Below, piece after piece: positions 3,679 to 59,280 of a stretch of 64,000 bases of DNA. Every line of letters starts with the position of its first letter. The first letter of the stretch is position 1. A program made the position numbers and the translations under genes. The stretch comes from an uncultured Rhizobium sp. (GTDB taxonomy: Bacteria; Pseudomonadota; Alphaproteobacteria; Rickettsiales; UBA1997), in the NCBI GenBank assembly GCA_964447395.1, contig CAYUSO010000006.1:10154-74153 (forward strand), written 5' to 3'. The notes under the pieces were generated by a model, which had not been told where the DNA came from, searched no databases, and saw only the letters and a program-made list of their open reading frames with translations.

Positions 3679-3757
3679 GATCTCAGCTCCCCGAGCGAAG
3701 TCGAGGGGACGTGAGTTCGTTTTTCCACCCCTCGACTTCGCTCGGGGAGCTGAGATC
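3679..3757. repeat. Family A palindromic element, copy A2
   Basis: gatctcagctccccgagcgaagtcgagggg at 3679-3708 and cccctcgacttcgctcggggagctgagatc at 3728-3757. Imperfect pairing extends outward (cgtcc at 3666-3670, ggacg at 3767-3771). Confidence 0.9.
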
Positions 3758-5128: not shown

Positions 5129-5195
5129 GCCCCTCGACTCCGCTTGGGGAACTAAAAAACTCCAATTTTTAGTTCCCCAAGCGGAGTCGAGGGGC
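5129..5195. repeat. Family A palindromic element, permuted copy A3
   Basis: gcccctcgactccgcttggggaact, then a 17-nt spacer, then agttccccaagcggagtcgaggggc. The arms are in the opposite order to A1, A2, A5, A6, A7 and A8. Confidence 0.9.
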
Positions 5196-5213: not shown

Positions 5214-7094
5214 ATGCGCTCCCCTCCACTATTGTCAATCCGCGACGCCACTATCTCCTTCGCCAAAAAAGTTCTTTTTGAAAATCTTCATCTTCATCTT
5301 TTTCCGCGTGATCGCGTTTGCTTGATTGGCAAAAATGGCGTCGGAAAAACTAGTTTGATGAATGCGATTGCTGGACAATTTGATCTCGATTGCGGTGAAC
5401 GCTGGATCACGCCTCACGCCATTGTTGGTTATTTGACGCAAAGTGAAAAACTGCCTTCAGGCCTTACGGTGTTTGATTTCATCATGTCTGGCATAAAACT
5501 TGATGAGCATAAAACTTACCTCATCGACATCGTTTGTGATCACCTAAAAGTCGATAAAAATGCCTTCACACAAAATCTTTCTGGTGGGCAGAAACGCCGC
5601 GTCAATCTTGCTCGCGCATTGGTTTTAGAACCTGATATTTTGCTACTCGATGAGCCAACAAATCACCTCGATTTGGAAGTGATTGAATGGTTAGAAAATT
5701 ACTTACAGAGCTTTCAAGGCGCGCTGCTAGTGATTTCGCACGATCGCAAATTTCTCGAAAAAATTTCCAACAAAGTTTTTTGGCTGCGCGCCGGACAGTT
5801 AAAAATTAATCAAAACGGTTATCGCGATTTCGATGAATGGTCGCAAAAAATTATCGAGCATGAACAAAGAGAGTTGACGAATTTAGAAAAGAAAGTCGGA
5901 CTCGAAAGCGGCTGGCTACAAACCGGTGTGACCGGAAGAAGAAAAAGAAACATCGGTCGCCTCCACTATTTGCAAGAGTTGCGAACGAAATTGGAAGCGC
6001 AAAAAAGATTGGTAAAAGCGAATCAGAGCTACATGAAAATCGAATCGCAAAAAATCGAGGAAGACGCGCCGCAGGTGATTTTGAGTTTGAATAATGTGAG
6101 CAAGAGTTTTTCTCGAGACCCCTCGACTCCGCTCGGGGAGCCGAATGAATCTAGTTCCCCGAGCGAAGTCGAGGGGCCAAAAAACCTCATCGAAAAATTC
6201 TCCCTAAAAATCCTCCGTGGCGAAAAAATCGGAATTATCGGCCGCAATGGCGCAGGAAAATCTACGCTTTTAAAAATGATGATTGGTGAAATTAAGCCCG
6301 ATTCTGGAACCGTCAAACCAGCCCGCGACATAAGCATTTCCTACTTCGATCAATCGCGCAGTAAAATAAAACCGACTTCAACAATTCAAGAAATTCTCTG
6401 CGATTCTGGTTCCGATTACGTCAAACTCGCTGGCGATAAAACCATGCATATTTGCGGCTATCTCAAGAATTTTTTATTCGATCCCAAAGAAACTCAAACA
6501 TTGGCCGGAACATTGTCTGGCGGGCAACAAAACCGTTTATTGCTGGCAAAAACTTTGGCGAATCCGGGAAATTTTATGATCCTCGACGAACCAACAAATG
6601 ATCTCGACATGGATAGTTTGGATATGTTGCAGGAATATTTGATGAGCTACAAAGGCACGCTAATCGTGGTTTCACACGATCGTGATTTTTTGGATAATGT
6701 GGCAACAAGCATTCTTGCCTTTGAGGGAAATGCAAAAATAAGTAATCATGTTGGCGGTTATTCGGATTATTTGGAATATAGGCAGAAGCATGATTCTCCT
6801 GTCCCCAAAGCGCCTCCAGTCTCTTCAAAAACTATTGAAAATATTGCTGTTGCGAGTGGAAATTCGAATGCAAAAAAACTCAGCTATAAGTACCGACTTG
6901 AGCTCGAAAAACTTCCGCAGAAAATTGAGAAGCTTGAAGAAAAAATTCGTGAGCTGAGTGAAGAGTTGAGTGAGACTGAAGATAGGAATTCGGCAAATTT
7001 GGCCCATATCGCAATTGAAATCGCAAAATATCAGAAGGAGCTTAATGCTGCGGAAGAGCGCTGGCTTGAGCTTGAAGAGATGAATCAAGTTTGA
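5214..7094 (+). CDS. uup: ABC-F family ATPase, Uup-like, carrying an in-frame family A element
   Basis: 626 aa. Two ABC cassettes: Walker A GKNGVGKTS and GRNGAGKST, signatures LSGGQKRR and LSGGQQNR. C-terminal coiled coil KLSYKYRLELEKLPQKIEKLEEKI. Confidence 0.9.
   Translation: MRSPPLLSIRDATISFAKKVLFENLHLHLFPRDRVCLIGKNGVGKTSLMNAIAGQFDLDCGERWITPHAIVGYLTQSEKLPSGLTVFDFIMSGIKLDEHKTYLIDIVCDHLKVDKNAFTQNLSGGQKRRVNLARALVLEPDILLLDEPTNHLDLEVIEWLENYLQSFQGALLVISHDRKFLEKISNKVFWLRAGQLKINQNGYRDFDEWSQKIIEHEQRELTNLEKKVGLESGWLQTGVTGRRKRNIGRLHYLQELRTKLEAQKRLVKANQSYMKIESQKIEEDAPQVILSLNNVSKSFSRDPSTPLGEPNESSSPSEVEGPKNLIEKFSLKILRGEKIGIIGRNGAGKSTLLKMMIGEIKPDSGTVKPARDISISYFDQSRSKIKPTSTIQEILCDSGSDYVKLAGDKTMHICGYLKNFLFDPKETQTLAGTLSGGQQNRLLLAKTLANPGNFMILDEPTNDLDMDSLDMLQEYLMSYKGTLIVVSHDRDFLDNVATSILAFEGNAKISNHVGGYSDYLEYRQKHDSPVPKAPPVSSKTIENIAVASGNSNAKKLSYKYRLELEKLPQKIEKLEEKIRELSEELSETEDRNSANLAHIAIEIAKYQKELNAAEERWLELEEMNQV
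6119..6176. repeat. Family A palindromic element, permuted copy A4, inside the uup ORF
   Basis: cccctcgactccgctcggggagc at 6119-6141 and agttccccgagcgaagtcgagggg at 6153-6176. Translated in frame as DPSTPLGEPNESSSPSEVEG. Confidence 0.9.
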
Positions 7095-56643: not shown

Positions 56644-57585
56644 TTAATGTGCTAAAAATTTTTCAATTTCGAGTGCGGCCATACAGCCAGTTCCAGCAGC
56701 AGTAATGGCTTGGCGATAGATTTTGTCCTGAATGTCACCAGCAGCGTAAACGCCAGGGATGTTGGTGGCTGTAGAGCCTGACTTAGTTTTGACATAGCCT
56801 TCAGCGTCAATTTCAAGGCCGCTATTTTTAAATAAATCGGAATTTGGTTTATGGCCTATAGCGATAAAAATTCCGTCGATTTTCATTTCGAGAATCTCGC
56901 CTGAAACTGTGTTTTTCAAGCGCGCGCCGGTGACGGAATTTGGATTTTCTGATCCTAAAACTTCATCCAAAGCATGATTCCAAATCACTTCGATTTTTGG
57001 ATTTTTGAAGAGACGATCTTGCAGAATTTTTTCCGATTTAAATTTATCGCGACGATGCACAACGTAAACTTTTTTAGCGTGATTGGTTAAATAAAGAGCT
57101 TCTTCAACCGCGCTATTTCCGCCGCCAACAACGATCACTTCTTTGCCGCGAAAGAAAAATCCATCGCAAGTTGCACATCCCGAAACGCCAAAACCTTGGA
57201 ATTTTTTTTCAGATGGAAGACCGAGCCATTTCGCTTGCGCGCCAGTTGCAATCACAACTGCCTCAGCTTCAAAAACATCTCCCGATTCGCCAGTTAAAAC
57301 GAAGGGGCGCTTAGAAAAATCAACTTGCTTGATGTGATCGTGAAAAATTTTCGTACCAACATGCACCGCCTGCTTTTCCATTTGCTCCACTAACCACGGG
57401 CCTTGAATGGCCTCGGCAAATCCTGGATAATTTTCAACATCGGTTGTGATTGTGAGTTGTCCACCAGGAGAATTTCCGTTAATGATGATTGGCTCAAGAT
57501 TAGCGCGCGCAGCGTAAATTGCGGCGGTATAGCCTGCTGGACCTGAGCCGATAATTGCTACTTTTGTTTTGTGAGTTGTTGTCAT
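56644..57585 (-). CDS. trxB: thioredoxin-disulfide reductase
   Basis: 313 aa. IIGSGPAGYTAAIYAAR, redox-active CATCDG, VVGGGNSAVEEA. Confidence 0.96.
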   Translation of the reverse strand: MTTTHKTKVAIIGSGPAGYTAAIYAARANLEPIIINGNSPGGQLTITTDVENYPGFAEAIQGPWLVEQMEKQAVHVGTKIFHDHIKQVDFSKRPFVLTGESGDVFEAEAVVIATGAQAKWLGLPSEKKFQGFGVSGCATCDGFFFRGKEVIVVGGGNSAVEEALYLTNHAKKVYVVHRRDKFKSEKILQDRLFKNPKIEVIWNHALDEVLGSENPNSVTGARLKNTVSGEILEMKIDGIFIAIGHKPNSDLFKNSGLEIDAEGYVKTKSGSTATNIPGVYAAGDIQDKIYRQAITAAGTGCMAALEIEKFLAH

Positions 57586-57620: not shown

Positions 57621-57688
57621 TAGTTCCCCGAGCGGAGTCGAGGGGTTAAGAGTTTGCTTTCTTACCCCTCGACTCCGCTCGGGGAACT
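57621..57688. repeat. Family A palindromic element, copy A7
   Basis: tagttccccgagcggagtcgagggg at 57621-57645 and cccctcgactccgctcggggaact at 57665-57688. These are perfect 24-nt arms with a 19-nt spacer. Confidence 0.92.
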
Positions 57689-59188: not shown

Positions 59189-59280
59189 TAGCTCCCCGAG
59201 CGGAGTCGAGGGGTTCGCGAGTAAAACTCAAATCCCCTCGACTCCGCTCGGGGAACTGAGGTGATGTCGGAGAGCTGAGG
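59189..59280. repeat. Family A palindromic element, copy A8
   Basis: tagctccccgagcggagtcgagggg at 59189-59213 and cccctcgactccgctcggggaactgag at 59234-59260. An extra partial sub-repeat gagctgagg lies at 59272-59280. Confidence 0.9.

Follow-up and report, generated by a model that had tools for sequence, protein, structure and literature searches.

The core of the palindromic repeat that we designate Family A contains no stop codon in any of its six reading frames, and this property is an outcome of base composition rather than of special design; for a GC-rich 24-mer it is close to a coin toss. Stop-freeness is permissive, neither decisive nor demonstrably selected. We regard it as highly probable that stop-freeness driven by composition merely permits a copy to reside within a gene, and that purifying selection acting on the length, the phase and the loop of the insert decides which copies survive there.

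Family A and its distribution in the genome

The core, AGTTCCCCGAGCGGAGTCGAGGGG, is 24 nt long, has a G+C content of 71% and is poor in T and A. It makes up one arm of a palindromic repeat that carries no gene, and that repeat is an inverted doublet of a hairpin module of 20-24 nt in which a CCCC/GGGG stem closes a 12-nt loop, GAGCGRAGTCGA. In the window, by which we mean the whole 64-kb stretch of DNA that was analyzed, we found 15 arms with three mismatches or fewer against 0 expected, which is far above chance. The features of the window that are needed here are as follows.

454-520: Family A hairpin, intergenic, flanked by partial repeats of the arm
3685-3751: Family A hairpin, intergenic
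5130-5194: Family A tail-to-tail doublet, intergenic, directly upstream of uup
5214-7094, plus strand: uup, encoding an ABC-F ATPase, a host gene with its insert directly ahead of the second ABC domain
6119-6176, plus strand: tail-to-tail doublet in uup (a reverse-complement arm, 10 nt and an arm), translated PSTPLGEPNESSSPSEVEG
22340-23644, minus strand: zapE, encoding an AFG1-like ATPase of 434 aa, a host gene
22663-22836, minus strand: compound palindrome in zapE, surrounding the hairpin at 22706-22773
22706-22773, minus strand: Family A hairpin in zapE, 68 nt, translated FPERSRGATKENFHPLDSARGT
23756-23820: hybrid doublet of a Family A arm and the variant arm CCCCTCGACGCAGTGTGGGGA, intergenic, in the zapE/nuoM spacer
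56644-57585, minus strand: trxB, neighbor of the hairpin at 57622-57688
57622-57688: Family A hairpin of 24 + 19 + 24 nt, with two perfect 24-nt arms and a 19-nt loop
57695-58435, minus strand: fabG, neighbor of the same hairpin
59190-59257: Family A hairpin, intergenic

The hairpin at 57622-57688 is the copy from which the six-frame openness of the core was originally described. An earlier note on this DNA placed its start at 57621, one nucleotide ahead of the position at which the core actually begins. The six translations that it gave for AGTTCCCCGAGCGGAGTCGAGGGG and its complement are exactly as written there, with stops in none of the six frames. The hairpin as a whole is not stop-free, however, its own loop placing stops in three of the six frames. 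It is predicted to fold with an energy of -60.1 kcal/mol (z = -11), and it lies between trxB and fabG, so that it is itself a non-coding copy. Hybrid doublets such as the one at 23756-23820, in which a Family A arm is joined to a variant arm, occur at nine loci in the genome. The two kinds of arm differ only in their central 8 nt (GAGCGGAG against ACACTGCG), and the mismatch in a hybrid would give an internal loop within the long hairpin.

The source genome is small and Rickettsiales-like; its draft assembly comprises 1.54 Mb on 29 contigs, with a G+C content of ~41% and an estimated completeness of 95.9%. Three of its contigs (C23, C26 and C28) are short, have 56-68% G+C against 41% for the genome, and probably represent contamination of the bin. 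Family A was amplified recently within one species: among 41 related genomes it is found in the source genome (209 arms in this comparison) and in one congener (11 arms), and the other 39 have none. In the full catalogue of the source genome we counted 215 arms with four mismatches or fewer at 125 loci; among them are 81-83 head-to-head hairpins (loop length 18-22 nt) and 4 tail-to-tail doublets. The hairpins are 66-70 nt long, and this length is a multiple of three in only 9 of 81 cases, which is why a copy is read in different phases in its two arms.

To place the copies relative to genes we used a simple codon-usage caller of our own, which yielded 1,271 genes covering 88.5% of the bases; it is a crude caller, and copies close to gene ends may be misclassified. 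Nine Family A loci fall within called ORFs. Two of the nine, in the genes for an SDF symporter and for MlaD, precede the first Pfam domain and probably lie upstream of the true start. The true coding loci thus number seven of 125 (5.6%), all of them in Pfam-confirmed genes, with ~94% of loci in spacers, and coding DNA is ~130-fold less likely per base than spacer DNA to hold a copy. The earlier note had made its proposal, that openness would let the hairpin settle in ORFs, depend on coding copies being commoner than expected; with only 7 of 125 loci coding where genes cover ~88% of the bases, they are not.

A copy is present in 12% each of the convergent, the tandem and the divergent spacers. 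We rejected a role as a terminator or other 3′-end element on these grounds, since equal occupancy of the three spacer types means that there is no 3′-end bias. In the spacers between tandem genes, ~20 of 76 copies start no more than 9 nt past the stop codon of the upstream gene. Some genes may end on a stop supplied by the element, whose arm borders often spell TGA, TAA or TAG.

Copies inside genes

The seven copies that reside in genes are listed here by host, with the position (in the window, or as contig and coordinate) and the reading of the two arms.

Uup, window 6119: arms read PSTPLGE ... SSPSEVEG
ZapE, window 22706: arms read FPERSRG ... PLDSARGT
ABC ATPase, C1:155584: arms read LPERSRG ... 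PSTPLGE
IspE, C3:13502: arms read VPRAKSRG ... PLDFARGT
Methyltransf_28 protein, C4:110954: arms read LPERSRG ... PSTLLGE
DapF, C6:98575: arms read SSPSGVEG ... PSTPLRE
IscS-like protein, C1:138844-138867: one degenerate arm (21 of 24 bases), read SLDSARET

The frames first quoted for Uup (PSTPLGE and SSPSEVEG) and for ZapE (FPERSRG and PLDSARGT) are correct, and the statement that the element is tolerated in at least two phases holds more broadly than it was made: genome-wide, all three left-arm phases are in use, FPERSRG three times, VPRAKSRG once and SSPSGVEG once, in addition to the doublet in Uup. The Uup ORF reads DPSTPLGEPNESSSPSEVEG across the doublet at 6119-6176, and the ZapE ORF reads QFPERSRGATKENFHPLDSARGT across the hairpin at 22706-22773. 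The compound palindrome around the latter carries 21-nt sub-repeats, each composed of an arm head and a spacer, to one side of the hairpin and the reverse complements of these to the other, and lengthens ZapE by ~69 aa. When searched against 5.8 billion proteins, the ZapE insert peptide matched only ZapE itself. Sub-repeat periods in the flanks of Family A copies range from 17 to 23 nt overall and are 21 nt in five of five coding cases, which come from three loci only; 21-nt periods in coding cases are the signature expected of a filter on reading frame.

Telescoped flanks of this kind (L^n ... R^n) are seen at 22663-22836, at many other loci of the source genome, and at two loci in other phyla (L072 and L081). 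In each arrangement the outer arm and a locus-specific spacer are repeated one to four times on one side, with the reverse complement repeated on the opposite side. They could arise from nested self-insertion or from hairpin-templated duplication. The borders of the coding copies share no consistent direct repeat, and no target-site duplication could be defined at them.

All seven coding copies differ from congeners at their site, six as added segments and one as a replaced loop. The comparison covered 8 to 25 congeneric genomes for Uup, ZapE, IspE and DapF; for the three remaining hosts it covered 4 or 5. ZapE has 434 aa in the source genome versus ~340-370 aa in congeners, and Uup is ~22 aa longer than in insert-free congeners; the congeneric proteins are shorter by ~31-32 aa for IspE and by ~17-19 aa for DapF, and no such segment is present in the congeneric orthologues of the ABC ATPase and the Methyltransf_28 protein. 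In the IscS-like cysteine desulfurase a single arm substitutes for a loop of variable length, with a gain of ~1 residue, and the loop sequences of congeners are unrelated to it.

At exactly these positions several congeners carry inserts of unrelated sequence: in Uup (L002, L003, L005), ZapE (L013, L014), IspE (P0008, P0030, P0035, P0086), the Methyltransf_28 protein (L145) and the ABC ATPase (L149, L150). Since unrelated inserts recur at the same protein sites, these sites are tolerant loops, and they are hot spots of recurrent insertion or of survival. Some of the congeneric inserts stem from other palindrome families, for example those reading HPELVSGS. The AlphaFold2 model of IspE is a confident fold (mean pLDDT 89.7) in which the insert, at about residues 46-81, is predicted to be an unstructured loop between two strands (pLDDT 40-49).

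With all seven host genes intact and the inserts at surface-loop positions, one might suppose that the added peptides have acquired a function of their own, serving for instance as an interaction motif or a new surface loop, and are retained for it. We consider this very improbable. The segments are missing from every congener compared and are therefore young, the same sites are occupied by unrelated inserts in other species, and different hosts read different phases, so that there is no common peptide on which a function could rest. When searched against 5.8 billion proteins, the ZapE insert peptide matched only ZapE itself.

We also looked for genes that a copy might have split. Among 33 same-strand gaps that a copy nearly fills, we checked the five whose flanking ORFs are shortest, and none contains a split gene; complete, different genes flank all five (IscU/IscA, an Fe-S assembly protein/PRA-PH, Def/PurN, DedA/Gmk and CyaY/PdxH). 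The possibility that most coding copies disrupt genes, which would have counted against the tolerance first proposed, is thus not borne out: no broken gene was found in the five spacers checked.

The intact reading frames suggest that the inserts are translated. The coding copies retain mRNA hairpins with predicted energies of -37 to -61 kcal/mol, and structures of this stability should hinder translation, a point that selection on length, phase and loop leaves unexplained. Such extremely stable hairpins, awkward for a ribosome, would present less difficulty if in-gene copies were never translated, either because they are cut out of the RNA or because the ribosome skips them, in which case their frame would be irrelevant. 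However, each in-gene copy preserves the frame of its host and is free of stops in the phase that is read, it is only in coding copies that the sub-repeat periods are divisible by three, and no out-of-frame copy that splits a gene was found. Excision would make these constraints needless, and we regard a lack of translation as very improbable.

Nor is it credible, in our view, that the in-gene copies are mis-joins made at repeats during assembly of this metagenome-derived genome. The draft is in 29 contigs, three of which have a foreign G+C content of 56-68%, and these facts invite the suspicion. On either side of every coding copy, nevertheless, the sequence is part of one gene and stays in its frame, and Pfam domains extend from one side to the other; a mis-join would rarely keep gene and frame seven times.

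Base composition, stop codons and residence in genes

The core has no stops because it is 71% G+C, with few T and A. Shuffled versions of it are stop-free in six frames in 39.6% of cases, and random 24-mers are so in 47.7% of cases at 71% G+C and in 4.9% at the 41% G+C of the genome. The loops have not been cleared of stops: among 76 non-coding hairpins the mean number of open frames is 4.26 of six, and it is 4.17 after the loops are shuffled. Stop-free cores are found in three of the seven hairpin-forming repeat families of the genome, against 1.9 expected from composition by shuffling. Among related modules in other phyla, stems ending in T make a TGA at the junction of stem and loop, and such stems are common.

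The flanks give the same picture. The earlier note proposed to test whether coding copies are depleted of stop-containing flank variants, and they are not: TGA, TAA or TAG is spelled across the arm border (CT followed by GA, AA or AG) in 71% of non-coding arms and in 11 of 13 coding arms. In the coding copies these words fall out of phase with the frame used and are hence harmless.

The GC-rich composition and the codons that it creates have a second consequence, which is that every phase of the core encodes a short hydrophilic peptide of Pro, Gly, Ser, Arg and Glu. Kyte-Doolittle means lie between -0.5 and -1.8 for all six phases and between -0.8 and -1.4 for the inserted segments. Hydrophilic translation probably matters more for tolerance than the missing stops.

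Across the repeat families of this genome, six-frame openness fails to predict residence in genes, as the following counts show.

Family A: core without stops; 7 of 125 loci deep inside genes
Family D (GTCGTAA heptamers): TAA in one phase of the core; 19 of 48 loci deep inside genes
Family E (AT-rich): several stops in the core; 0 of 32 loci deep inside genes
Family F (CCCTCTCCCACAAGG...): core without stops; 8 of 16 loci deep inside genes
Family G (GATCCCGAAACAAGTTCGGGATC): core without stops; 3 of 46 loci deep inside genes
Variant arm TCCCCACACTGCGTCGAGGGG: core without stops; 0 of 26 loci deep inside genes

The peptides that these other families contribute to genes include LTTYDLRLTT and SRKSLVVSRKS (family D), ALSHKGRG and PSPLVGEGWGEG (family F) and, within three genes, HPELVSGS (family G). 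In the window, such families occur in genes at, for example, 17613-17716, in a gene of 685 aa, and 23273-23290, in zapE. The latter position (approximate, minus strand) marks a second in-frame insert specific to the source genome, 19 aa of the heptamer family reading RQPSFNTHKTRLTTYSLQLTT; it lies directly ahead of the Walker B motif of ZapE and is missing from nine of nine congeners compared.

These results bear on whether selection has favored six-frame openness of the core itself, enabling the hairpin to colonize the ORFs of a compact genome. There are observations that agree with such a design. Two other GC-rich hairpin cores of the genome are open in six frames as well, all six phases of the core give hydrophilic, turn-prone peptides, and in other phyla the module is found in frame in LeuRS (L041), in an NRPS (L067) and in long ORFs (L090, L093, L094). 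We nonetheless think design unlikely. A 40-48% chance of six-frame openness follows from composition alone, the loops show no depletion of stops, and 71% of arms have a stop word at the border. Residence in genes is confined to 5.6% of loci, with the ~130-fold deficit per base noted above; family D, with its TAA, has 40% of its loci in genes, the six-frame-open variant arm has none of 26, and related modules whose T-ending stems create TGA are common all the same. Weak selection at the level of the element for translatability may have acted, given that the three GC-rich stop-free families, among seven, are also hydrophilic.

What stands of the original claim, that a stop-free hairpin can enter ORFs without truncating them, is the tolerance; what does not stand is the importance of openness, which composition, loops and census mark as neither remarkable nor decisive. 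We infer that selection is the filter through which in-gene copies have passed. A copy of the GC-rich core that lands in a gene, having no stops, need not truncate its host, and ordinary purifying selection would then sort which copies persist. Survival would require that the whole insert be a multiple of three, that stops in the loop and at the borders fall out of phase, and that the site be a surface loop able to accept extra residues.

Related elements, spread and significance

In-frame palindromic repeats within genes are already known from the Rickettsia palindromic elements (RPEs) and from several MITEs (PMC10969869, PMC3184786). The RPEs (Ogata et al. 2000 Science 290:347, as presented in PMC10969869 and PMC3184786) are, by the account in PMC10969869, ~100-150 bp long, with one conserved peptide per family and nearly half of their copies in ORFs. 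Like them, Family A is a palindromic repeat in an alphaproteobacterium of the obligate-intracellular type, found in frame and without disruption in unrelated housekeeping genes at positions compatible with the fold; all seven coding copies are of this sort. Unlike them, Family A is a 67-nt hairpin that has 5.6% of its loci in genes, is read in three phases and yields no common peptide. No single peptide, frame or orientation is conserved, phases differing between hosts and between arms. Family A may be said to work like an RPE, the likeness being one of behavior.

REP and REPIN elements, which are associated with RAYT transposases (PMC3116915, PMC3337134, PMC2817692), resemble Family A in being short GC-rich hairpins and inverted doublets, non-autonomous, mostly intergenic and present in more than 100 copies. 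They are described as extragenic, however, whereas Family A is also found in genes, and modules of the Family A type in other phyla flank a small GIY-YIG gene rather than a RAYT. The RAYT family (Y1 transposase, PF01797) had no match in the source genome, which is 95.9% complete, and did match in control genomes. One end of REP elements, as characterized in PMC3733652, is marked by a conserved tetranucleotide, GTAG or CGTC; the arms of Family A lack GTAG, and CGTC occurs only inside variant arms (...GCGTCGAGGGG), not at an end.

Among MITEs, ERIC, BOX, Coxiella QMITE1 and the Anabaena MITEs form in-frame fusions with ORFs of their hosts (for reviews, see PMC10969869 and PMC3184786). Family A shares with MITEs a small size, the lack of genes, inverted repeats that form long stem-loops, and occasional residence inside or fused to coding sequences. 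Its 24-nt arms are terminal inverted repeats, with the palindrome continuing ~30 nt further in many copies. It differs in its flanks, which are symmetric telescoped partial repeats, and our searches turned up no transposase-bearing insertion sequence as its parent. A search of Rfam with the hairpin returned only sub-threshold, microRNA-like matches, as expected for any long perfect hairpin, and we found no paper on the core sequence.

Family A is also related to unnamed hairpin modules associated with GIY-YIG genes, which have the same 12-nt loop, GAGCGNAGYCGA, and a complementary stem. The 21-mer TCCCCGAGCGGAGTCGAGGGG of the core is found without any change in at least 99 stretches of DNA from many phyla, among them Bacteroidota, Spirochaetota, Myxococcota, Fibrobacterota, Actinomycetota and Patescibacteria, where ~0.3 would be expected by chance. 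The conserved unit is the loop, closed by complementary stems of variable sequence: four or more closing pairs accompany it in 159 of its 184 occurrences in the source genome and in 160 of 182 in other phyla, the latter with 25 different 4-bp stems. The modules flank a small GIY-YIG gene (100-119 aa) in 14-16 of 80 loci from other phyla (L021-L100), and when ORFs near the motif in other phyla were clustered, the small GIY-YIG family was the only recurrent neighbor.

To judge from their sequence, Family A hairpins look like two such modules inverted, minus the GIY-YIG gene. Units that bear the gene were found in other genomes only. Unlike some of its relatives, Family A in the source genome adjoins no GIY-YIG gene; the nearest module lies 4.6-7 kb from two small GIY-YIG ORFs, one of which belongs to another subfamily and the second of which is frameshifted. 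The frameshifted gene, at C5:52800-53200, has the family G palindrome on both sides. It seems likely that Family A was spread by a GIY-YIG nuclease acting in trans. The literature on GIY-YIG proteins and palindromic repeats yielded fungal mitochondrial work and REP/RAYT systems only, and nothing on these modules.

A bolder reading would be that the modules of this pan-bacterial family, possibly spread by small GIY-YIG nucleases, have been shaped by selection at the level of the element for a reading that is open in six frames and hydrophilic. We think this unlikely. If it were true, such elements would gain extra landing space in the genes of compact genomes, and openness would be an adaptation, not a by-product of G+C content.

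For the narrow claim about stop-freeness the outcome is deflationary, since the observation is accurate but ordinary. Its setting is of wider interest. Essential proteins of a reduced genome, Uup, ZapE, IspE, DapF and others, can gain 17-69 residues from a selfish hairpin repeat and survive it, and the factors that govern this appear to be the length of the insert, its phase and the availability of a tolerant surface loop, not the absence of stops. There is also a lesson for annotation, namely that unusual Pro-, Ser-, Gly- and Arg-rich segments in the proteins of such genomes are repeat-derived.
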